Assembly (NCBI GenBank): GCA_016219005.1 | Contig: JACRCN010000033.1 | Span: 7,595 to 71,594, forward strand | Reading direction: 5' to 3' | Length of the DNA: 64,000 bases | Origin: Deltaproteobacteria bacterium | GTDB taxonomy: Bacteria > Desulfobacterota > Desulfobacteria > Desulfobacterales > SpSt-501 | In this document: one piece after another, positions 3,315 through 49,540 of the stretch | How positions within the stretch are numbered: position 1 is the first letter of the stretch | Layout: each line of letters opens with the position of its first letter | Notes under the pieces: model-generated | Told to the model about the DNA's origin: nothing | The model's database searches: none | The model's input: the letters and a program-made list of their open reading frames with translations, nothing else | Position numbers and translations under genes: made by a program

Positions 3315-3788
3315 ATGGTCAACACATTGACATCGATTTGGACCTATCGACTCATCCGCTGGCTGCTGTCGTTTATATTTCTGTATGCCGGCGCGACCAA
3401 ACTTGCGGACCCCCAGGCATTTGCCGCCCTGATCGACGCCTACGGCATCGTTGCCGATCCCTTGTTGATGCCGGTTGCGGTCGGGCTGCCGTTGCTTGAA
3501 GTGCTGGCGGCGATCGGTTTGATGGCCGATATCCGCGGATCGCTTGCCGCGGTTTCCGGGCTCATGGCGATTTTTATAACCATACTGATTTATGGCATTC
3601 GGATGGGCCTCGATGTGGACTGCGGCTGCTTCGGCCCGGAGGACATCGAGTCCCGGGCCTATCACGGCCTTTGGGAAGCACTCTACCGCGACCTCGTGAT
3701 GGCGACCGGGATCGTTTATCTCTATGGATGGCGCCGCTTCCGGTCTGCCGGTTCGGCAAACTGTCACAGTTACTTCAATGCATGCTGA
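3315..3788 (+). CDS. MauE/DoxX family redox-associated membrane protein
   Basis: 157-aa protein with four hydrophobic segments and the MauE-type DCGCFG motif. Confidence 0.75.
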   Translation: MVNTLTSIWTYRLIRWLLSFIFLYAGATKLADPQAFAALIDAYGIVADPLLMPVAVGLPLLEVLAAIGLMADIRGSLAAVSGLMAIFITILIYGIRMGLDVDCGCFGPEDIESRAYHGLWEALYRDLVMATGIVYLYGWRRFRSAGSANCHSYFNAC

Positions 3789-3802
3789 GAGGAGAATTGA
3801 AG

Positions 3803-4327
3803 ATGGGGAATTGGGCTAAATCCGGTCTCATTCTGTGCGTTTTCGTTTTCATTGGCGCCGGTGTCGTTATGGCCGCGGATAAGTTCGAAGAGGAATTCAA
3901 CTGGGAGAAGATCAGCATCGGCCTTTACAACCAGACCAAGGCCGGTGGCTACAAGCTGGTCGGCACCGAAGAACTGAAGGGCTGGATCGATGCCAGGAAG
4001 GAGATGCTGATCGTCGACACGATGCCTTACGAGGACAGCTACAAGAAGGAACACATCCCCGGCGCCAAGCAGTTCCTCTTCCCCATTCCGGACATGAAAA
4101 CCTGGGACGTTAAGGAGACCGCCGGCAAGAGCGAGCAGGATTTCGTACAGATCCTGGGGCCCGACAAAAATAAGCTGATCGTGATCTACTGCGGATTCGT
4201 CAAGTGCACCCGCAGCCACAACGGGGCCGTCTGGGCGGTCAAGAACGGCTACACCAACGTGTATCGATACCCGGGTGGGATCTTCGCCTGGAAAGGAGCG
4301 AAGTACCCGACGGCGGACGTTAAATAG
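3803..4327 (+). CDS. exported rhodanese-domain sulfurtransferase
   Basis: ATG at 3803 is preceded by GAGAGGAG. It has an N-terminal signal peptide (LILCVFVFIGAGVVMAADK) and a rhodanese fold with an active-site region IYCGFVKCTRS. The longer ORF starting at 3671 was rejected. Confidence 0.75.
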   Translation: MGNWAKSGLILCVFVFIGAGVVMAADKFEEEFNWEKISIGLYNQTKAGGYKLVGTEELKGWIDARKEMLIVDTMPYEDSYKKEHIPGAKQFLFPIPDMKTWDVKETAGKSEQDFVQILGPDKNKLIVIYCGFVKCTRSHNGAVWAVKNGYTNVYRYPGGIFAWKGAKYPTADVK

Positions 4328-4339
4328 AGGTTTTCAGGG

Positions 4340-4900
4340 GTGAATGATTCGGTCATAACGCCGGTCGATGTGCCCGTATTCATCGGCGAGCGGGCGCAAA
4401 ACCTTTTTCGCAGCCGGCAGATGTACTGCTCGGAGGCGGTCTTGGTTGTGTTGAACAATGTGCTGGGCGGAGGGCTCACGGAAAACCAAGCTTCTGCCCT
4501 TGCGGCACCGTTTGCGGAAGGCGTCGGGAAAAACGGATGCCTTTGCGGGGCTCTGGCGGGGGCACTCTTGGCTGTGGGGCTCTTCCTCGGATCGTCCAAC
4601 CCTGTAGGGCGCCGAAAACCCGTTCAAGTTGCGTCGGGTATTTTGATGAAACGCTTCAAACTGCGATTCGGCGCCTCATGTTGCCGGATCCTATCCAGGA
4701 AAGATCAAGGCGATCCCGTTCCGGTTTTCGATCGGTGCGCGCAGCAGACCGCCGAAGCCGCCGCCATGGCCGCATCGCTGATCATGGAACATCGACCGGA
4801 AGTGAAACAGCATGCGGATATTGATTATTTAAATGCCCGCGATTCGGTAGTCAGCGGGTTTTTCAAGAATTCACTCCGGCGCACGGGTTGCCGGATCTAA
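4340..4900 (+). CDS. C_GCAxxG_C_C family putative redox-active protein
   Basis: Conserved pattern YCSEAV ... GCLCGALAGA ... FGASCCRIL, typical of the C_GCAxxG_C_C family. GTG start. Confidence 0.7.
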   Translation: MNDSVITPVDVPVFIGERAQNLFRSRQMYCSEAVLVVLNNVLGGGLTENQASALAAPFAEGVGKNGCLCGALAGALLAVGLFLGSSNPVGRRKPVQVASGILMKRFKLRFGASCCRILSRKDQGDPVPVFDRCAQQTAEAAAMAASLIMEHRPEVKQHADIDYLNARDSVVSGFFKNSLRRTGCRI

Positions 4901-5125: not shown

Positions 5126-5217
5126 AGGGGCAATGGTGCTGGGCACCCCGCGGTCTTCAAAACCGTCGGCCTCGTCTTAACAACGTGGAGGAGGTTCGAT
5201 TCCCCTTGCCCCTTCCA
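5126..5217 (+). tRNA. selC: tRNA-Sec (anticodon UCA)
   Basis: Anticodon loop CUUCAAA on a GCGGU/ACCGU stem, with a long variable arm, a GGTTCGATTCC T-loop and encoded CCA. The acceptor arm AGGGGCAA pairs with TTGCCCCT (8 bp). It ends 23 nt before selB. The exact 5' end and the 8/5 versus 7/5 stem partition are uncertain. Confidence 0.8.
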
Positions 5218-5240: not shown

Positions 5241-7163
5241 ATGGAAAGCCATTACACAATCGGTTTTGCCGGCCATGTCGATCACGGCAAAACGTCGCTG
5301 GTACGCTGTTTAACCGGTGTCGACACCGATCGAAAACCCGAGGAAAAACTGCGTGGAATGTCAATCGAAGCGGGTGTGGCACCCCTCAATCTGCCCTCCG
5401 GCAGGCAAGTCGCAGTAATCGATGTTCCCGGGCACACCGATTTTCTAAAAAACACCATCCGGGGACTCAACAGCGTCGATTTGGGTGTTCTGGTCGTTGC
5501 CGCCGATGACGGCGTCATGCCGCAAACGCGAGAGCATCTTGAGATACTCAAATTTTTCAAGGCGACATCCGGATTTGTCGTATTGAGCAAAACGGATCTG
5601 GTGGACCAAGATACGGTTGAGTTGGCAGAGCTCGAAGTGCGCGAACTGCTGAGTGGGACATTTCTTGATAATCGCCCCTTTTTCAAGTTCACCACAATGA
5701 ACCCGAAGCTTTCAACCGACATTATTCAGGGCATCGATGCCGCTCTCATCGAGCTTCCGACAAAGAAATCCGACCCACCTTTCAGGCTATGGATCGACCA
5801 AGTGCGAACGCTCGTCGGTCACGGCACCGTGGTGAGTGGCACCGTATCCTCCGGGTGCATCCAGTGCGATGACGTAATAGAGCTTTTGCCTTCCGGCAAC
5901 AAGATTCGTGCCCGATCATTGGAAACACACGGAGCCGCGATTTCCAAAGCCGTTGCAGGTCAGAGAGTCGGAATCAATCTCCACCGGGTTCCCATCAATG
6001 AAATTGCTCGAGGGATGGCACTCGTGACGCCTAGCGCGATCCCTCCTGTTAATATGCTGAATGCGGATATCCACGTTTTAGAAAAAGCCAAAAGGGGCCT
6101 CAAAAACCGCCAGAAAGTTAAAATCTACCTCGGCACATCCATAACCAATGCCATGATCATCCTGATGGGTGGGGACCGGCTTGATCCGGGAGAAACCGGT
6201 CTTGCCCAAATTCGGCTGATGAGGCCGGTTGCCGCTACGCCGCAGGAAGCATTCGTTGTTTCGCCGCTAAACATCAACACGGTGATCGCCGGCGGCCGAG
6301 TGCTGGAGGCGGCGCAAGAGAAATATCGAATATCAAAATCCGGTTCGCTCCTTCCGCTTTTGACAGCTCTCCGACTGGCGGATGTTGGCGCATACGTTGA
6401 AACAGTGTTCGCCCATTCCACGGGGTACCTGATCACCGCAAGGGATTTATCCATAAAAACAGGTCTGCCGCATTCTGAGTTCGAGTCGCTGATCAGTTCC
6501 AAGGTACAAAAAGGTGAATTTATCTACATCAAGGGTTACGGCGCCATAAAGAAGACCCATGTGGCCGCGATCAAAACCGGATTTCTGGCCGTTGTGGAGG
6601 AGACATTCAAGAAAGATCCTCTGAAAAAGACCATTCTAATTTCAGAAGCGGCAGAGCGCCTGGAAAATCGGGTTGCGATTGTTCTGCTGCAAATTGTTGC
6701 CGATGAGCTTTGCGCGGAGAACAAGCTGATTCGGCTCCATGGCGGTTACCACACTCCCCTTACCGAAAAATCACTTGATGCGCATCGTGAATCCCTGATT
6801 TCACAACTGCTGGAATATGCACAAAGCTCCGGAGTCACCCCCTTCAGCGCGGACACTTTCTGGAAACTGCACCGGCCGAAGTTCAAGAAAGAGGATATCC
6901 AGCAGTTGCTCAATTATCTTTTTTCACAAGACAAAATGGTGCGGTTGAACGATCAGCGGTTTTTATCCATTGAAGCCCTGGATGAAATCAAGAGGCGCGT
7001 AACACGGACCGCAACGTCAAAAGGGTTCATCACCGTCAACGACTGTAAGGAAGTGCTGGGCTATGGGAGATCGGGCGGCACCCATGTTTTGGATCACCTG
7101 GATAAAACCGGCTTCACCGTGCGGCGGGAAGACAAACACTACCTCATGAAGAGCCTCGCCTGA
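5241..7163 (+). CDS. selB: selenocysteine-specific translation elongation factor SelB
   Basis: 640 aa. GTPase motifs GHVDHGKTSL, DVPGH and SKTD, followed by a long C-terminal winged-helix region typical of SelB. Adjacent to tRNA-Sec. Confidence 0.9.
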   Translation: MESHYTIGFAGHVDHGKTSLVRCLTGVDTDRKPEEKLRGMSIEAGVAPLNLPSGRQVAVIDVPGHTDFLKNTIRGLNSVDLGVLVVAADDGVMPQTREHLEILKFFKATSGFVVLSKTDLVDQDTVELAELEVRELLSGTFLDNRPFFKFTTMNPKLSTDIIQGIDAALIELPTKKSDPPFRLWIDQVRTLVGHGTVVSGTVSSGCIQCDDVIELLPSGNKIRARSLETHGAAISKAVAGQRVGINLHRVPINEIARGMALVTPSAIPPVNMLNADIHVLEKAKRGLKNRQKVKIYLGTSITNAMIILMGGDRLDPGETGLAQIRLMRPVAATPQEAFVVSPLNINTVIAGGRVLEAAQEKYRISKSGSLLPLLTALRLADVGAYVETVFAHSTGYLITARDLSIKTGLPHSEFESLISSKVQKGEFIYIKGYGAIKKTHVAAIKTGFLAVVEETFKKDPLKKTILISEAAERLENRVAIVLLQIVADELCAENKLIRLHGGYHTPLTEKSLDAHRESLISQLLEYAQSSGVTPFSADTFWKLHRPKFKKEDIQQLLNYLFSQDKMVRLNDQRFLSIEALDEIKRRVTRTATSKGFITVNDCKEVLGYGRSGGTHVLDHLDKTGFTVRREDKHYLMKSLA

Positions 7164-8473
7164 TGGGCATTCACGTTTACAATACACTGACCCGGAAAGA
7201 GGAGCCGCTGGAACTCATCTCACCGGGAAAAGTAAGCATCTACGTTTGCGGCCCCACCGTCTACGACGATCCGCATCTGGGACACGCCCGCCCCGCCGTG
7301 GTGTTCGATGTGATAACCCGTTACCTCAAGGCGCAAGGGCATGCCGTTACGTATGTTCGCAACCTCACCGACATAGACGATAAAATCATCGAAAAAGCCC
7401 GCCAACAAAACCGGGATTTTAAGACATTGGGCGGGCACTACGCCAATCGATATCATGAAGCCATGCGGCGCTTGAATGTCGCCGCACCCGACGCTGAGCC
7501 CAAAGCCACTGACCACATCCTCCACATGCGAGATTTCATTTCGAAACTGATCCAACGCGATCATGCCTATCAGTCCCGCGGCAATGTTTACTTCGCGGTT
7601 GAATCTTTCAAAAATTACGGAAGGCTTTCACGCCGCACGGTCCCATCTATTTCCTCGAACTTCTCCGTGGAGCAGGGCAAACGGCACCCGGCCGATTTTG
7701 CCTTATGGAAAGAGGCCAAACCGGAAGAGCCTTCATGGGCGAGCCCCTGGGGGTCTGGACGTCCCGGTTGGCATATCGAATGTTCGGCCATGAGTTCACG
7801 CTTGCTGGGGGAGAACTACGACATCCACGGCGGCGGTGCCGATCTTGTCTTCCCGCATCATGAAAATGAAATCGCGCAGTCGGAGAGCCTTTTCGGGAAA
7901 ACTCCTGCCAATTATTGGATGCATAACGGCCTTGTCTACATCGCCGGCGAGAAGATGTCCAAGTCCCTTGGAAATGCCCTTAATCTTCATGGCCTCCTTG
8001 AAATCCACCGGCCGGAGGCACTGCGCCTGTTTCTGCTGACGAAGCATTATCGGCATCCGATGGAAGTGACCCATCCGGCCTTGCATGAAGCATCCGCCCG
8101 CCTGTCGAAACTTTACCGTTTCCTTTTTCGCAGCGCATGGTCAGACGCTGAATCAGGCGAGCTTGGAATCAACCGAGGCGCCTTATGGACCCGCTTCTGC
8201 AACGCCATGGGAAAAGACTTCAACTTCCCCATGGCCCTGTCCGTTCTCTTCGAGGGTATCCGGCAGGTAAATCTTGTCTCCGGAAACAGCCGGGATGCAG
8301 TGGGTGCCGATCCCGCCTGCCGCGCGATAAGCCTTGTATCGGATATATTCTTCATTTGCCGGGATGTTCTCGGAATTGCGCCGGAGCCATCCATGGATGC
8401 ATGGCCATATGAAACCGAGACAAAATTGAGTGATGGCAAACTGCAAACCGCTACTTTTAGGAGGGCATCATGA
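7163..8473 (+). CDS. cysS: cysteine--tRNA ligase
   Basis: Class I motifs HLGH (HIGH) and KMSKS, with Zn/Cys-site residues CGPTVYD, GWHIECS and FPHHENE. Its start overlaps the selB stop (TGATG). Confidence 0.9.
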   Translation: MGIHVYNTLTRKEEPLELISPGKVSIYVCGPTVYDDPHLGHARPAVVFDVITRYLKAQGHAVTYVRNLTDIDDKIIEKARQQNRDFKTLGGHYANRYHEAMRRLNVAAPDAEPKATDHILHMRDFISKLIQRDHAYQSRGNVYFAVESFKNYGRLSRRTVPSISSNFSVEQGKRHPADFALWKEAKPEEPSWASPWGSGRPGWHIECSAMSSRLLGENYDIHGGGADLVFPHHENEIAQSESLFGKTPANYWMHNGLVYIAGEKMSKSLGNALNLHGLLEIHRPEALRLFLLTKHYRHPMEVTHPALHEASARLSKLYRFLFRSAWSDAESGELGINRGALWTRFCNAMGKDFNFPMALSVLFEGIRQVNLVSGNSRDAVGADPACRAISLVSDIFFICRDVLGIAPEPSMDAWPYETETKLSDGKLQTATFRRAS

Positions 8474-41162: not shown

Positions 41163-43115
41163 TCAATTCGCTATGGAGACGATGCGCATATCGGTGACAA
41201 TGTGGGCCTGCCGGCCGTCTTCGTATTTGATGAGGGTGTCGATGTGAACGCTGTCGTTTTGGGTATACAGCGCATCCACGATCTCCTTGTAGCGCTTCTC
41301 CACGAAGGCCCGGCGCAGCTTGCGCGTACGGGTGAGTTCGTCGTCGTCCGCGTCGAACTCCTTGTAGAGATTGGTGAACTTCCGGACTTTAGCCAAATCC
41401 GGCAAATCCTTGTTGGCCTGGCGAATCTGTTTTTCCACCAGGTCGTAGACCTCGGGCATCTGGGACAACTCCTGGTAACTCGTGTAATTGAGTTTGCGCT
41501 GATCGGCCCAATTGCTGACGACCGCATAATCGATGCACATGACGGCCGAGAGGTAGTCCCGTTTGTCCCCGATGACCCATCCGTCCTTGATGTAGGGGCT
41601 GAATTTCAGGCGGGTCTCCAGGTATTGGGGCGCAAAGGGGCGGCCGTCTTTTAGGGTGAACACGTCCTTGGTGCGGTCGAAGACGACCAGGTGGCCGTCG
41701 TCATCGATGAACCCCTTGTCGCCCGAGTAAAGCCAGCCGTCGATAAGGGTCTTCGCAGTGGCCTCGGGGTTCTTGTAGTAGCCCTGGAACACCGACGGGC
41801 TGCGGGTGAGAATTTCGCCATCCTGATTGATGCGCACCTCTGTTCCGGGGATGGGGGTGCCGACCGTGTCGAACTTGATGTCGCCTCTGCGGTGGACGAC
41901 CGATATCCCGGCCACCTCGGTCTGTCCGTAGATCTGCTTCAGGTTGACGCCCAGCGAGTGGAAAAACCGGAAGTGGTCCGGGCCCATGGCCGCTCCACCC
42001 GTGTAGGCGTTGCGCACCCGGCTCATCCCCAGGTTATCCTTCAGCTTCTTTTGCACCGTCGCGTAGACCAGCCCATGCAGGGCCTGCCAGTAAAAGGGTA
42101 CCGGCTTTTTGGCGAATTTCATGTCCGCCACGCGGTAGCCGACCCATGTAGCGAACTGGTAAAAGGTGCGCTTCAGCCAGGTGGCATCCAGGTATTTGAC
42201 CTGGACGGTTCGGGTCATCTGCTCGTACATGCGGGGCGGGGCGAACATGACATGCGGGCCGATCTCGCGGATGTTGGCCTGGGCGGTCTCCGGTGCTTCC
42301 GGGAAGTTCAACGTGTAACCCATCTGAAGGCCGCAGGAGATCGACATCATCTGCTCGCCGATCCATGCAAACGGCAGATAGGACACGTAATCGTCGCTGT
42401 CCTGGCAAGGGTCCACCTCCATCAGGTGCTTGCCCATGGACAGCATGTTGTGGTGGGAGAGCAGCGCCCCCTTGGGCAGCGCGGTCGTGCCGGACGTGTA
42501 GAAGAGCAGCGCGATCTCCTCGCCGTGGCCCTTGTTGATGAGCTCTTCGAACAGATGCGGCTTTTCCTTTTCGAGTTCCCGGCCCAGATCCTGCACGTCT
42601 CTGAGGCTGATGAGACACTCCTGATGGTATTGGCGCAACCCCTTGGGGTCGTCCCAGATGATCTTCTTCAGCTTGGGGCAGTCCTTGATAATGGAAAGCG
42701 TCTTGTCTACTTCCTCCTGACCTTCGCCGAAGACGAACTTGGCATCGGAGTGGTCGATGATGTAACGGACTTCGTCCATCAGGCAGTCCTGAAAGAGCCA
42801 TACGCCCACGCCCCGGGCACACAGGGCCGCCATCTCCGCCATCAGGCCCTCGGGCCGGTTGTCGCCGATCATGGCGACCTTGTCTCCCTCCTGCAGCCCG
42901 AGCTTGATCAGGCCCAAGGCGAGATATTTGACGTTGTCCAGGTAATCCTGCCAGGTGATGGGGCGCCAGATCCCGAATTCCTTCTCGCGCATCGCCACAC
43001 GGTCTTTGCCGTAGCGTTTGGCCTGTTGATGGAAAAGCTTGGGGATCGTGAGGTCCTTGGGAAATTCCTGGGCGTCTTCCGCTTTCACGCCGATCGCTTT
43101 ATCTCCGTGTGGCAT
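41163..43115 (-). CDS. long-chain acyl-CoA synthetase (AMP-forming) embedded in the ABC operon
   Basis: YTSGTTALPKGALLSH, YGQTE and GDKGFIDDDGHL. The ATG at 43115 follows AAGAGGA. Confidence 0.85.
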   Translation of the reverse strand: MPHGDKAIGVKAEDAQEFPKDLTIPKLFHQQAKRYGKDRVAMREKEFGIWRPITWQDYLDNVKYLALGLIKLGLQEGDKVAMIGDNRPEGLMAEMAALCARGVGVWLFQDCLMDEVRYIIDHSDAKFVFGEGQEEVDKTLSIIKDCPKLKKIIWDDPKGLRQYHQECLISLRDVQDLGRELEKEKPHLFEELINKGHGEEIALLFYTSGTTALPKGALLSHHNMLSMGKHLMEVDPCQDSDDYVSYLPFAWIGEQMMSISCGLQMGYTLNFPEAPETAQANIREIGPHVMFAPPRMYEQMTRTVQVKYLDATWLKRTFYQFATWVGYRVADMKFAKKPVPFYWQALHGLVYATVQKKLKDNLGMSRVRNAYTGGAAMGPDHFRFFHSLGVNLKQIYGQTEVAGISVVHRRGDIKFDTVGTPIPGTEVRINQDGEILTRSPSVFQGYYKNPEATAKTLIDGWLYSGDKGFIDDDGHLVVFDRTKDVFTLKDGRPFAPQYLETRLKFSPYIKDGWVIGDKRDYLSAVMCIDYAVVSNWADQRKLNYTSYQELSQMPEVYDLVEKQIRQANKDLPDLAKVRKFTNLYKEFDADDDELTRTRKLRRAFVEKRYKEIVDALYTQNDSVHIDTLIKYEDGRQAHIVTDMRIVSIAN

Positions 43116-43920
43116 ACATGTCCTCTTCACCCAGATACGCCTTGATCACTTGGGGGTTGTTCTGGACCTCCTGCGGGGTCCCATTCATAATCATGTTGCC
43201 GAAATTGAGCACGAACACCTGATGGGAAAGGTCCATGACGACCCCCATGTCGTGCTCGACGAGCAGACAGGTGACCTTCCAGCGCTTGTCCTCGTTGACG
43301 TCTATGACGAACCGCGCCATGTCCTCGGTCTCCTCGAGGTTGAGGCCGGCCAAGGGCTCATCGAGGATCAGAAGCTCCGGTTCCAGCGCCAGGGCGCGGC
43401 CCAGCTCCACCCGTTTTTGAAGCCCGTAGGGCAGCATCCCCACGGGCTTGTGCCGGATGTGCTCGATCTCCAGCAGGTCGATGATCTCCTCTTCGATAAA
43501 CCGGCGATGCTCGATCTCTTCGCGCGCGACCCGGCCGGCATAGATGGCACCGCTGAGGATGCCGGATTTGAAGTGGATATGCCGTCCGAGCCGGATGTTG
43601 TCCAGGACCGTCATGCCGCCGAACACCTCCACTTTCTGGAAGGTCCGGGCCATGCCCAAGGACGCCCGCTGATAGGGTCTGATATTGTTGATGAGCTGGC
43701 CCTTGAAACGGATCTCGCCTTTCTGGGGCCGATACAGACCGTTGATGATGTTCATCATGACAGTCTTGCCGGCACCGTTGGGGCCGATAACGGAGTGGAT
43801 ATCCCCTTTGCGGACCTGGAGGCTGACTCCGGACAGGGCCGCCACTTTGCCGAAATACATATGGATGTCTTTCAGGTCGAGCAGGACGTCATCCGCTTTG
43901 ATGGCTGTGGTTCCCCCCAC
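43099..43920 (-). CDS. branched-chain amino acid-type ABC transporter ATP-binding protein (LivG-like)
   Basis: Walker A GPNGAGKT, signature-equivalent region YGLQKRVELGRAL, Walker B LLILDEP. A GTG at 43920 lies 8 nt after GGAGG. Confidence 0.85.
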   Translation of the reverse strand: MGGTTAIKADDVLLDLKDIHMYFGKVAALSGVSLQVRKGDIHSVIGPNGAGKTVMMNIINGLYRPQKGEIRFKGQLINNIRPYQRASLGMARTFQKVEVFGGMTVLDNIRLGRHIHFKSGILSGAIYAGRVAREEIEHRRFIEEEIIDLLEIEHIRHKPVGMLPYGLQKRVELGRALALEPELLILDEPLAGLNLEETEDMARFVIDVNEDKRWKVTCLLVEHDMGVVMDLSHQVFVLNFGNMIMNGTPQEVQNNPQVIKAYLGEEDMYATRR

Positions 43921-44219
43921 TAGCAAATCCTCCCGTTTTTAATTCTAAAATATGAAGCCAATTCATTTCATTGAATGTTTTCTATAAGGTACCGAGTGTT
44001 TAGTCAACACTTTTGTTAGTAAAACGGTGCGATGCATTAATTTTGAATAAACCAAGCAACTTATATATCTAATTGACAGCGCGGAAACCGGCCATGATTT
44101 TTGGGTTATTTTATTTATCTAACTGAAATTTTTATAAATTAACAATTAAGCCCAACGACCCTGAAGATAGCCCCGAAATAATAATGAATAAATAGCTGGT
44201 AAATAGCGGCTAAATGCCG

Positions 44220-45830
44220 CTATATTTCGAAGGCGAGCAGGTGCGCGCGCAGGTTCTTCTTGCTTTTCCGGAGGCCCAGTTTGGTGCGAATATTGTACCG
44301 ATGAAACAGGATGGTGTTCTTGGAAAGGTAGAGCAGTGCGGCGATTTCCTTGTTTGTTTTACCCTCCTTCACGAGGTTGGCCACACGGATTTCCGTAGGG
44401 GTGAGGTTGACATAGTTCGATGACAGATGGCTGATGAACGGCGAGATGATGTTGCCGAGGTTCGTTTCGAGAATGTCGGCCAGCGCCTTCTGGGTCGAAG
44501 TCAGCCGTCCCTTTTTCAACTGCTCCAGGTAGGGGCTGATGAGCTCCTTGACGTTGGAGCGCACCACTTCGCCGAATTCCTTCCGGTCGTCCTCGCGCTG
44601 CTTCAACAGCACCTTCAGGGCGGTGTTGACCTCCTTCAGGTGAAGCGACTGGGCCTTGAGCTCCTTTTCGCGTTTCCTCAGCTGGCCCTCGGCTCTTTTA
44701 CGGTCCTCGACCTCCTGGGCCAGTTCCGCCGTTCGCGCGGCGACTCTTTCTTCCAACTGGTCCTGATACTCTAAAAGCTTCCGCTCCGCGCGTTTCTGGG
44801 CGCTGATGTCGCGCAGGGTTACGATGTTGCCGGCGGGTTTGCCGTCCCGGTCGAAGAACAGGGTGGAGCTCAGCTGCACATCCAACGTGCGTCCGTCCCT
44901 GGTGTTGCGCCGGGTCTCGAAGAGCTGAATCTTGTCGCCCTTCAGCATGTTGCCGATCGCCGCGCGGGTTTCGGGCCAGCTCTCCTCCGGCACGAAATCG
45001 ATCGGCTTGCCGAGGAGTTCATCCCGCCTGAGCCCGAAGGTCTGTTCGAAGGCCGGGTTCACGTACTGGGCCGCCCCCTGAACGTCGTAGACCACGACCG
45101 GGTCCGGCGACGACTCCAGCAGGAGTCGATAGCGCGCCTCGCTCTCCCGGAGGGTTTCCTCGGTACGCTTGCGCTCGGCCAGCTCCCGGATGGCCTCCGC
45201 GTAGAGGCGCGCCTTGTCGAGGGCAACGGTGGCCAGCTCGGCGAAACGCTCGAGCACCACGATGTCCTCGGCCTGGAACCCTTTGCCGGCCTCCACCTGC
45301 GCCAGGCCGATGACCCCCTCGACCCGGCCCCGGTACTTCAAGGGGATCCCCACCACGGCGCGCAGCGCATCCAGGGATTTGTCCGCCAGGCGGCCCGCCC
45401 ACGTGCGGTAGTCATCGATCAGCAGGAAGGTTTCGCTCTCCCAGACCCGGCCGCCCACGCCCTCCCCCGGCCGGACGCGCAACCCCAGCTGGTGCTTGAA
45501 GAACCCCATTCCCACCCGCATCTGCATGGCGGCCGCGTCGGGCTCGAGCAGGTAGATGTAGCCGTGCTCGGTGCGGGTCAGGCGTGCGGCCCGGTGCAGG
45601 ACGGCTTCCAGAAGTTCTTCCTTGTCCAGGCGGTCGATCAGGCCGAGCGAGGTCGCGTGCAGGGCCGCCAGGCACTCGTTTTGCCGCCGCAGGACGGCCG
45701 CCCCGTCGGTGAGACGCAGCAGGGCCGCCTCGAGCTGCTCCACTCGGCGCTGCCGGGCGTTTCGTTCCGAAGGGCTCGCCGACACGTCGGCCTCTTTTCC
45801 GTTGCTTCGGCATCCAGCCGAAAAGGTCAC
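44220..45830 (-). CDS. GAF-PAS-coiled coil-LuxR HTH transcriptional regulator
   Basis: C-terminal LTPTEIRVANLVKEGKTNKEIAALLYLSKNTILFHRYNIRTKLG (LuxR/GerE HTH). Upstream lie GAF-like and PAS-like regions and a Lys/Glu-rich coiled coil. GTG start. Confidence 0.8.
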   Translation of the reverse strand: MTFSAGCRSNGKEADVSASPSERNARQRRVEQLEAALLRLTDGAAVLRRQNECLAALHATSLGLIDRLDKEELLEAVLHRAARLTRTEHGYIYLLEPDAAAMQMRVGMGFFKHQLGLRVRPGEGVGGRVWESETFLLIDDYRTWAGRLADKSLDALRAVVGIPLKYRGRVEGVIGLAQVEAGKGFQAEDIVVLERFAELATVALDKARLYAEAIRELAERKRTEETLRESEARYRLLLESSPDPVVVYDVQGAAQYVNPAFEQTFGLRRDELLGKPIDFVPEESWPETRAAIGNMLKGDKIQLFETRRNTRDGRTLDVQLSSTLFFDRDGKPAGNIVTLRDISAQKRAERKLLEYQDQLEERVAARTAELAQEVEDRKRAEGQLRKREKELKAQSLHLKEVNTALKVLLKQREDDRKEFGEVVRSNVKELISPYLEQLKKGRLTSTQKALADILETNLGNIISPFISHLSSNYVNLTPTEIRVANLVKEGKTNKEIAALLYLSKNTILFHRYNIRTKLGLRKSKKNLRAHLLAFEI

Positions 45831-45835
45831 ACCCC

Positions 45836-46054
45836 TCAGGAGCCGCCGTCAAACCCGATGATGACCTGTCCGCGGTCGACGATCACCGGTATCCGGCGTT
45901 GCTGCTTGGAATAGACCAGCATATCCTTCAGCCGGGCCGCATCGTCCAGAACGTCTGCGTACTCGACCCGGCGACCCTTCTTGGCATAGGCTTCACGAGC
46001 TGCCCGGGTGTGGGGTCAGCTCCGCTTCCCGTAGATTACGACCCGGTCGACCAT
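45836..46054 (-). CDS. glutaredoxin-like selenoprotein (Sec at codon 13)
   Basis: Not in the ORF track. The ATG at 46054 lies 7 nt after GAGGAG. The translation is MVDRVVIYGKRS-U-PHTRAAREAYAKKGRRVEYADV...RRIPVIVDRGQVIIGFDGGS. TGA (46016..46018) aligns with the first Cys of the Grx CPYC motif, and the fold hallmarks (beta1 VVIYGK, cis-Pro region IPVIV, GG) are intact downstream of it. Confidence 0.65.
45983..46022 (-). promoter_or_regulatory. candidate SECIS region of the Grx-like gene
   Basis: Two alternative hairpins. One is GAGCUG(A)CCC-CACACCC-GGGCAGCUC, which includes the UGA (45997..46022). The other is GGCAGC-UCGUGAA-GCC(UA)UGCC (45983..46004). Which one, if either, binds SelB cannot be decided by eye. 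Confidence 0.35.
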
Positions 46055-46268
46055 CGCCGCACTCCTCGAGAGGGGGGTGGTTTTGTCCTCAGGGCACACC
46101 GTGCCGCTCCTTAACGTCCCGCGCAGGATAGCCTGCTCCTCAAGGCGCACGGCACGGTTTCCCTAGCGCGAACACCTACCAGTCGTTTCTCTCCTTGTCA
46201 ACGCACACGGATTGGTCTATAGATTTTCAGGTACGATGCGTTAATTTCGAGAGGATTCGGGCACCGGC

Positions 46269-48326: not shown

Positions 48327-48788
48327 ATGGAAAAAAGCCCCATCAAGATCGTCGCCGAAAACCGCAAGGCCCGCTTCGATTACACCGTCATCGACCAATA
48401 CGAAGCCGGGATCGTGCTGACGGGCACCGAGGTCCAGTCCCTGCGAATGGGCAAGGCCAACCTGAAGGATTCCTACGCCAAAGTCAAAAACGGCGAGGTG
48501 TTTCTGTACCAGATGCACATCGGCCCCTACCCGTTCGCCTACTACAACAACCACGAACCGCTGCGGCCGCGAAAACTCCTGCTCCACAAACGCGAGATCA
48601 ATCGCCTGTTTGCCAAGGCAAACGAGCAGGGGCACACCCTCGTTCCTCTCAAGATCTACTTCAAGCAGGGCAAGGCCAAGGTCCTCATCGCTCTCGTCAA
48701 GGGCCGGCGCGAATTCGACAAACGCGAAAATATCCGCGAGCGCGAGCAAAAGCGCGAGATGGACCGCGCCCGCAAGCACCGATCTTGA
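48327..48788 (+). CDS. smpB: SsrA-binding protein
   Basis: IAENRKARFDY...GTEVQSLR...PRKLLLHKREI is canonical SmpB. tmRNA follows. Confidence 0.92.
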   Translation: MEKSPIKIVAENRKARFDYTVIDQYEAGIVLTGTEVQSLRMGKANLKDSYAKVKNGEVFLYQMHIGPYPFAYYNNHEPLRPRKLLLHKREINRLFAKANEQGHTLVPLKIYFKQGKAKVLIALVKGRREFDKRENIREREQKREMDRARKHRS

Positions 48789-48910: not shown

Positions 48911-49267
48911 GGGGGCGATACGGTTTCGACGGGGACAATGAAATTCAAGCTGCATACCGAGCGTCCTGTCGGCTCGTAAATCCTGATGGGGCTAAACATA
49001 ATCGCAGACGATTATGCGTACGCCGTAGCTGCCTAAGGCAGCTACCGTCCTGCCGGTTCTCCTCCTGCTGATCCGGTAAAGGGCGTCGACTCGCGGGATA
49101 GTTGATCCAGAGTGCCTGCGGCTGGATCGGCGAACGTCAGCGGGCTGGCCGATTGCGCATCCCGCTTGGAGGAGTCGCAAGAGGCGAGATTCAAACTCCA
49201 AGATAAGTATGTAGATGCTTGAGTGGAATGTTTTCGGACGCGGGTTCGACTCCCGCCGCCTCCACCA
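48911..49267 (+). ncRNA. ssrA: transfer-messenger RNA (tmRNA)
   Basis: The 5' GGGGGCGAUACGGUUUCGACGGGG pairs with the 3' ...GGACGCGGGUUCGACUCCCGCCGCCUCCACCA, including a G3-U wobble. The tag ORF GCA GAC GAT TAT GCG TAC GCC GTA GCT GCC TAA (49004..49036) encodes ADDYAYAVAA. Confidence 0.9.
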
Positions 49268-49270
49268 TTT

Positions 49271-49540
49271 TTATCCTGTTTTTTCAGACACTTGCGAATC
49301 AGCATCCTTTGACACTGGTAGAATACTGGTAGAATTCCAAGCATCTTCCAGCCGATTTCCATCGTCTGGCGCGGGCACGTGCCGGTAATAATGGTCCACG
49401 ATCATGCGTGTCGTGGTGTGCCCGACCTGCTTCTGGATGAAGCTCATGCGCTCATTCTGATCCAGCGCGTTGGTGATGTAGGACGGCCAGTCCGCCCTGA
49501 TGTTGTGTGCGCCCAGGCTGCGACACATTGCCTCCAGCAA
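49271..49540 (-). pseudogene. tyrosine recombinase/phage integrase relic (C-terminal catalytic part only)
   Basis: AHNIRADW...QKQVGHTTTRMIVDHYYRH matches the HxxR ... GH ... Y box II region. There is an in-frame stop 5 codons upstream and no N-terminal domains. It ends 4 nt from the tmRNA 3' end. Confidence 0.65.

Follow-up and report, generated by a model that had tools for sequence, protein, structure and literature searches.

The 64,000-nt stretch of DNA analysed here (the window) contains, on the minus strand at 46054..45827, a gene for a 75-residue protein of the glutaredoxin (Grx) fold that appears to carry two selenocysteine (Sec) residues and to belong to UXX-star selenoprotein family 1, also listed as "Distant Grx-like protein 1". 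We put the probability of this explanation as a whole at about 90%, the chemistry being the part of it that we infer. With U read as C, the product scores 95.7 bits (E 1.4e-27) on NF041114, the NCBIfam model for "UXX-star selenoprotein family 1", whose curated equivalog cutoff is 72, and the match spans profile positions 1-66 of 70. The match to Pfam Glutaredoxin (PF00462; 32.9 bits against a cutoff of 22.9, E 7.6e-8, U read as C) covers all of the profile (positions 1-60 of 60), and the NCBIfam match is much the stronger and more specific of the two. Given both, the prediction of a selenoprotein gene at this position is far beyond chance. A sequence-only reading of the window had already proposed a glutaredoxin-like selenoprotein gene here, and the two profile matches bear it out. 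It had described the gene as unannotated. The family itself is not new: it has a curated model (NF041114) and appears in two reviews (PMC13188914, PMC9312934). The features on which the analysis rests are as follows.

46062..46067, minus strand: Shine-Dalgarno sequence GAGGAG, 7 nt before the ATG, read directly.
46054..46052, minus strand: start codon ATG.
45827..46054, minus strand: revised coding sequence of 75 codons plus stop, from the translation, NF041114, Pfam Glutaredoxin and 68 homologous loci.
46016..46018, minus strand: first predicted Sec codon, UGA at codon 13, in the position of the Grx nucleophile, from homologous loci and protein alignment A1.
45836..45838, minus strand: second predicted Sec codon, UGA at codon 73, in a C-terminal U-G-V-stop, from the 68 loci and homolog P0045.
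45827..45829, minus strand: true stop codon UGA, from the comparison of loci, 10 nt before the loop of SECIS2.
45983..46004, minus strand: SECIS1, a candidate hairpin within codons 18-24 of the coding sequence, GGCAGCU-CGUGA-AGC(CUA)UGCC, from its fold and synonymous constraint.
45806..45822, minus strand: SECIS2, in the 3' untranslated spacer, UUCGGC-UGGAU-GCCGAA, from its fold and covariation.
44220..45785, minus strand: GAF-PAS-LuxR(GerE) regulator with a revised GTG start at 45785, from Pfam GAF_2, PAS and GerE.
5126..5217, plus strand: tRNA-Sec with anticodon TCA, from ARAGORN and Rfam RF01852 (55.5 bits, gathering score 47).
5241..7163, plus strand: SelB, the Sec-specific elongation factor, which binds SECIS hairpins, from Pfam GTP_EFTU, Beta-barrel_SelB and SelB-wing_3.

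The Shine-Dalgarno sequence (46067..46062, with the ATG at 46054) lies where the sequence-only reading had placed it, and GAGGAG(T) is found at an equal distance from the start in the four closest relatives compared (L001-L004). The revised product of the coding sequence is MVDRVVIYGKRS-U-PHTRAAREAYAKKGRRVEYADVLDDAARLKDMLVYSKQQRRIPVIVDRGQVIIGFDGGS-U-GV-stop. The TGA at codon 13 stands in the context GKRS-U-PHT, with S-U-P-H-T occupying codons 12-16, and the 3' end of the gene reads …GGC TCC TGA GGG GTG TGA, which would be translated as …G-S-U-G-V-stop. As read from these codons, UGA is probably used with two meanings 9 nt apart, as UGA(Sec)-GGG-GUG-UGA(stop) at 45827..45838 on the minus strand. 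A promoter scan found no sigma-70-like promoter upstream of the selenoprotein gene. A terminator scan picked up a G+C-rich inverted repeat on the plus strand at 46060..46079 that overlaps the complement of the Shine-Dalgarno sequence, and in L001-L003 the Shine-Dalgarno sequence is preceded by a pyrimidine-rich stretch complementary to GAGGAG. The inverted repeat could be a stem that sequesters the Shine-Dalgarno sequence, or it could be due to chance.

The comparison took in 15 homologous loci from GTDB genomes and 80 from metagenomes, and the gene was readable in 68 of them. The N-terminal site is TGA in 59 of the 68 and TGC in the other 9, which confirms the Cys/Sec pairing anticipated for the nucleophilic position, and in the homologs conservation continues past this TGA, as had also been argued. 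The Thr noted at the resolving position is invariant in the homologs (protein alignment A1). At the C-terminal site TGA is present in 68/68 loci, in every case with exactly two codons between it and a stop; the two residues are themselves conserved ([GRKAED][VILA]). The 68 loci are therefore 59 U/U and 9 C/U forms, and homolog P0045 is a C/C form with Cys at both sites (CGYT…TCSV). By these counts the predicted Sec codon 73 is even more conserved than Sec codon 13. The closest genomes are Desulfobacteraceae/Desulfobacterales MAGs, and the locus is near-identical in a groundwater metagenome run; the sequencing runs matching the locus are DNA metagenomes only, with no RNA run among them.

Two in-frame TGAs in a frame of 76 codons might also be expected of a decaying Cys-glutaredoxin pseudogene with nonsense mutations, or of a gene in which TGA encodes Trp under an alternative code, and some public homolog calls do translate TGA as W. 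However, both TGAs recur in 59 distinct loci, down to a pairwise nucleotide identity of 57%, with amino-acid conservation on both sides of them. The aligned residue in homologs that lack the TGA is Cys and never Trp, and neighbouring genes, such as the regulator, use TGA as a stop. All three TGAs are kept in independent assemblies of the same strain and in strains that are 95-99% identical. The window further encodes tRNA-Sec and SelB, so that neither decay nor a changed code is needed to account for the TGAs. The comparative data appear effectively to refute both, and we regard either as hardly credible. The public calls that read TGA as W make both Sec sites visible (…GKDAWPYTRAAREAYAK…GFDGGTWGV).

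Other glutaredoxin-like selenoprotein genes were seen in the scan of the related genomes. Locus L008 (6001..6200) contains a classical UxxC-type gene with ST-U-PHC, for which locus L005 (6001..6200), from a Thermodesulfobacteriota MAG, has ST-C-PHC, forming a clean Cys/Sec pair. A gene with T-U-PPC is present in locus L006 (3849..4040), from a Terriglobia MAG.

The sequence-only reading had described a gene of 72 codons and a protein of the monoselenol type, ending at the TGA at 45838..45836. Under such a reading this TGA is a legitimate stop, the product is a 72-residue glutaredoxin with a single Sec in U-P-H-T, and the hairpin downstream is a terminator, as hairpins after genes can be, or is incidental. 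Gene callers do end the Cys-13 homologs at this point (P0004, P0025 and others), and the public calls of these homologs extend only to …GFDGGT. Yet each of the 68 loci has exactly two sense codons between this TGA and a stop, with the [GRKAED][VILA] pair conserved and nothing conserved beyond it, and in one homolog (P0045) the position of codon 73 is occupied by Cys. No in-frame conservation is seen past the true stop, where L002 has a 1-nt indel. The hairpin lies at a fixed distance from the TGA, has an invariant loop G and covaries; it is not followed by the U-run of a terminator, the loci having an A-run there in most cases. The curated family model is, moreover, defined as UXX-star. A single-Sec protein is, in our judgement, very improbable. 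The match to UXX-star together with TGA GGG GTG TGA gives a gene of 75 codons with its stop at 45829..45827, and neither the 72 codons nor the single selenol is supported, codon 73 being a second predicted Sec codon that is TGA in 68/68 loci and has a covarying SECIS hairpin of its own.

The bacterial SECIS (bSECIS) model given in a review (PMC13188914) calls for a loop of 3-9 nt with G at its first or second position, on an upper stem of 4 bp or more. The loop should lie 16-37 nt from the UGA, and the minimum free energy (MFE) should be -7.5 kcal/mol or lower. SECIS2, with a 6-bp stem and a 5-nt loop (UGGAU) that begins 19 nt after UGA-73, falls within all of these limits (MFE -8.4 kcal/mol, z = -3.76). 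Across 46 distinct sequences (alignment A2), 98.2% of cells are paired, compensatory changes occur in 6/6 pairs, and the G at +24 in the loop never varies. The paired fraction of the alignment was not equalled by any of 500 shuffles, slid controls were 24-49% paired, and RNAalifold found the same helix. No U-run follows the hairpin, and most loci have an A-run in its place. We consider SECIS2 a convincing SECIS.

The sequence-only reading had suggested a search for a SECIS downstream of the first TGA, and a SECIS-like hairpin is indeed found in the proposed range, at 45983..46004. The loop of this hairpin, SECIS1 (CGUGA), begins 18 nt after UGA-13 and has G at its second position, followed by U. 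Its loop size, loop G and spacing agree with the bSECIS rules, and its upper stem has only 3-4 bp before a bulge. The MFE is -5.1 to -6.5 kcal/mol for the hairpin alone and -8.9 in a 44-nt segment, with z near 0, as in shuffles. In 25 distinct sequences 92-97% of cells are paired, with no significant covariation in either of the two stem registers tested. In one of the two possible registers the window has an A·C mismatch, and one strain variant restores an A-U pair in one of the tested registers.

Since its z-scores are indistinguishable from those of shuffles, SECIS1 was instead assessed by the constraint on synonymous sites. Among 51 distinct Sec forms, codons 18-24 show hardly any synonymous variation, with a normalised codon entropy of 0.18 against 0.61 elsewhere (permutation p about 3e-5). 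The frozen codons are GCT (51/51), CGT (48/51), GAA (51/51), TAT (50/51) and GCC (49/50), whereas invariant residues elsewhere in these genes are encoded by 3-4 codons. In the segment of codons 18-24 the 7 distinct Cys-13 sequences have other codons (GCC, GCG, CGC, GAC), which form no hairpin. We read the frozen codons 18-24 as probable RNA-level selection tied to UGA-13, and this constraint gives SECIS1 indirect support. Neither hairpin is matched in Rfam, in which no family was found at the locus even at E <= 10.

The two predicted Sec codons could be decoded by machinery encoded in the window itself. By analogy with established bacterial Sec decoding, SelB and Sec-tRNA(Sec), both window-encoded, would recode UGA-13 and UGA-73, each UGA being served by its own hairpin (SECIS1 for UGA-13 and SECIS2 for UGA-73), and translation would end at the third UGA, 9 nt past the second. 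This third UGA is only 10 nt from the loop of SECIS2, outside the 16-37 nt rule, which is plausibly why it terminates. SelA and SelD were not found among the ORFs scanned in the window. A scan of TGA-interrupted ORFs for further selenoprotein genes in the window gave, among the cases translated, only ordinary gene ends and non-coding frames. The tRNA-Sec gene has selB directly behind it, and after selB follows a gene for cysteinyl-tRNA synthetase (7163..8473, plus strand), the start of which overlaps the selB stop. Just upstream of tRNA-Sec (3315..4900, plus strand) lies a cluster of small genes for redox or sulfur handling, which encode a MauE-like membrane protein, a protein with a rhodanese domain and a C_GCAxxG_C_C protein; no in-frame TGA linking them was seen.

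The name UXX-star stands for Sec, two residues and a stop, and the window gene shows every feature of family 1 that was tested. Its C terminus is U-x-x-stop (TGA GGG GTG TGA at 45838..45827), it has the U/C-x-x-T motif at the Grx active site, and it contains two Sec codons in total. It further shares with the family the length of about 70-75 aa and the Grx-like fold. Nothing of substance differs; the window copy has His for the usual Tyr in U-P-[YH]-T, and its final stop is UGA rather than the usual UAA. Among the 51 distinct Sec forms the stop is TAA in 42, with TGA in the window and in its closest relatives (L001-L004). In a 2026 review "Distant Grx-like protein 1" is entered as having 2 Sec and the motif UxxT (PMC13188914), and a 2022 review has the entry "Distant Grx-like protein 1, UxxT" (PMC9312934). 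The gene is an ordinary member of a catalogued double-Sec family, and its novelty is low. No published experiment on UXX-star family 1 was found in the literature searched, and the GOS paper does not use the UXX-star family name.

Several related groups share part of this architecture. UXX-star families 2 and 3 and the HUGP/GUXX-star fusion (NF041211, NF047338 and NF045501) also have a Grx-like domain that ends in G-U-x-x-stop, but the window protein scores below threshold with all three models (35.9 against 100, 45.4 against 97 and 34.3 against 325 bits, respectively), and family 2 is listed with one Sec (GxGU), unlike the two of family 1 (PMC13188914). Classical glutaredoxins (CPYC dithiol or CGFS monothiol) have in common with the window protein the fold, an active site at the N terminus of helix 1 and the cis-Pro loop. 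The window protein has neither a C-x-x-C or CGFS motif nor the C-terminal helix by which the glutathione site is completed, and the equivalog models for Grx3, GrxA and NrdH fall far below cutoff. Since the fold is that of Grx and the classical features fail, we file the protein as a Grx-like UXX-star selenoprotein and not as a glutaredoxin proper; it may nevertheless work like Grx. NrdH-redoxin and mycoredoxin are similar to it in size and fold (Foldseek TM 0.76-0.78), but have a CxxC dithiol and no Sec, and on their models, with cutoffs of 85.75 and 89.5 bits, it scores only about 13.6-13.7. NrdH is associated with genes for ribonucleotide reductase, and no nrd genes were found near the selenoprotein gene in the neighbourhood examined.

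The closest solved structure is cGrx1 of Clostridium oremlandii (7c10, 7c12; TM about 0.73, 32% identity), which we take to be the Sec-containing Grx of Kim et al. 2011. It resembles the window protein in its Grx fold and in having Sec first in the active-site motif. It differs in its UxxC motif, which supplies a resolving Cys, in its single Sec and in the presence of a C-terminal helix, whereas the window protein has Thr at the resolving position, lacks the helix and has a second Sec three residues from the C terminus. The Sec-Grx motif is given as UxxC in PMC13188914, where Kim et al. 2011 is cited for Sec-containing Grx.

A predicted model of the natural Cys/Cys homolog P0045 (AF2, pLDDT 81) shows beta1-alpha1-beta2-alpha2-beta3-beta4 and no third helix, with the protein ending 5-8 residues after beta4 and its last 4 residues at pLDDT < 50. 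The best Foldseek matches are cGrx1 (7c10, 7c12), mycoredoxin-1 (Mrx1) and NrdH, with TM of 0.72-0.78, and the IPV/VPV motif is conserved in the protein alignment. The modelled fold is that of a truncated glutaredoxin, in which the usual C-terminal helix is missing. Sec13 takes the place of the active-site nucleophile, and Sec73 lies on a short tail that leaves beta4 after GFDGG. In Grx structures the edge of the fold next to the beta4 tail borders the active site. The nucleophilic position of Sec13, the Thr at the resolving position and the placement of the Sec73 tail near the edge of the active site favour a redox couple of Sec13 and Sec73.

By analogy with thiol oxidoreductases of this fold, the protein is most likely a thiol/selenol oxidoreductase in which Sec13 would act on the substrate as the nucleophile. 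The resulting adduct would be resolved by Sec73, giving a selenenyl-selenide within the protein, or Se-S in the Cys-13 forms. The tail bearing Sec73 would in this respect be like the C terminus of thioredoxin reductase (TrxR), itself a mobile redox tail. In mammalian TrxR and TGR this tail reads …G-C-U-G-stop, and the likeness lies in a Sec of the penultimate region on a flexible C-terminal tail with a proposed role as a redox shuttle. In genes of this type only a few codons separate the UGA from the true stop, which leaves untranslated RNA as the place for the SECIS. The mammalian enzymes differ in their eukaryotic SECIS and machinery and in a tail that pairs Cys and Sec internally and is reduced by a flavin domain, whereas the proposed partner in the window protein is another Sec, which lies in the Grx active site. 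Among PDB entries, the Grx domain of TrxR3 (3h8q) matches the window protein best by sequence.

A diselenide between Sec13 and Sec73 is purely what we infer, from a model in which the tail has low confidence. The combined proposal, that a minimal 75-residue Grx uses a catalytic Sec13-Sec73 diselenide and that in this lineage the UGAs for Sec and stop are discriminated only by their distance from the hairpin, is tentative, and the balance of probability leans somewhat against it. The two-Sec architecture would also be compatible with selenolates that serve as soft metal or metalloid ligands, or as a selenium/sulfur carrier, and not as a redox pair in catalysis. Thr always stands in place of the resolving Cys, the alpha3 helix that completes the classical Grx glutathione site is missing, and the Sec residues of UXX-star proteins have been suggested as possible ligands of a metal or of another substrate (PMC13188914). 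Yet no Hg or As resistance or transport genes adjoin the gene in any context examined, and the fold and the position of Sec13 are typical of a thiol oxidoreductase. We regard a ligand or carrier role as unlikely, if a serious competitor, and retain the oxidoreductase as the preferred function.

The GAF-PAS-LuxR regulator gene had been placed 5 nt after the selenoprotein gene, and the two had been taken for a redox-sensing pair. The longest ORF of the regulator opens at GTG 45830. However, this longer frame is broken in L002 by the 1-nt indel, the start is found at one and the same conserved position, 45785, as ATG in L003 and GTG in L001, L002 and L004, and tblastn matches to relatives begin at residue 1 of the GTG 45785 start, which is preceded by AAGAGG. 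The regulator most likely starts at GTG 45785, judging from these alignments, 41 nt after the true stop and not 5 nt after the gene. This start leaves a 41-nt spacer, largely filled by SECIS2.

The regulator is the next gene in 26 of the 42 relatives that have at least 900 nt of downstream sequence; an ABC ATPase follows directly in 9 of the 42, and 7 have neither. Upstream, divergent ptsH-ptsI-smpB are present in 51/56 loci; loci of the Desulfobacterales type have these genes in common and, usually, the regulator or an ABC ATPase. The Cys-13 forms, which belong to other lineages, adjoin ThyX, 4HBT thioesterase, deformylase and pentose-phosphate genes, and the regulator is absent from all Cys-form contexts. 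Because the regulator is missing in many relatives and the Cys forms have other neighbours, the adjacency is best seen as synteny within one lineage, and the redox-sensing pair is not supported. In the contexts examined, no neighbour is common to the Desulfobacterales-type and Cys-form loci, and gene context was for this reason rejected as evidence of function. Co-transcription of the selenoprotein gene and the regulator in this genome is possible.

Some further features of these neighbourhoods were observed. In the Cys-13/Sec C-terminal loci L096, L100 and L102-L104 the gene is repeatedly found beside an unusually long ThyX (509-532 aa), together with 4HBT thioesterase and peptide deformylase and, in some, 6-phosphogluconolactonase, 6PGD and G6PD. 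Downstream of the regulator in the window (41163..43926, minus strand) are an ABC ATPase (43099..43926) and an AMP-binding protein of 655 aa that resembles acyl-CoA synthetases (41163..43130). Most of the related loci conserve this pair, placed behind either the selenoprotein gene or the regulator. On the other side, smpB (48327..48788) is followed by tmRNA (48911..49267), directly after which a minus-strand ORF (49271..49540; …GHTTTRMIVDHYYRHV…) resembles, by its translation only, the C-terminal end of a tyrosine recombinase. This ORF may be what is left of an element that had inserted at the tmRNA gene.

For annotation, these results mean that 46054..45827 on the minus strand should be called as a 75-codon double selenoprotein gene, with the start of the regulator moved to 45785. 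Current understanding is unchanged by the gene, since the family was already catalogued, along with the UxxT motif and the two Sec residues; the gene is one more member of that family, from a groundwater Desulfobacterales-like population. It is a tidy case all the same, with two predicted SelB recoding events in a gene of 228 nt, one candidate SECIS in the coding sequence and one SECIS in the 3' UTR, and in the clade of the window the UGA stop follows only three codons after the UGA for Sec. If the proposed diselenide and the discrimination of Sec from stop by hairpin distance are true, the protein and its gene would provide a compact natural model for diselenide redox chemistry and for the SECIS spacing rule.
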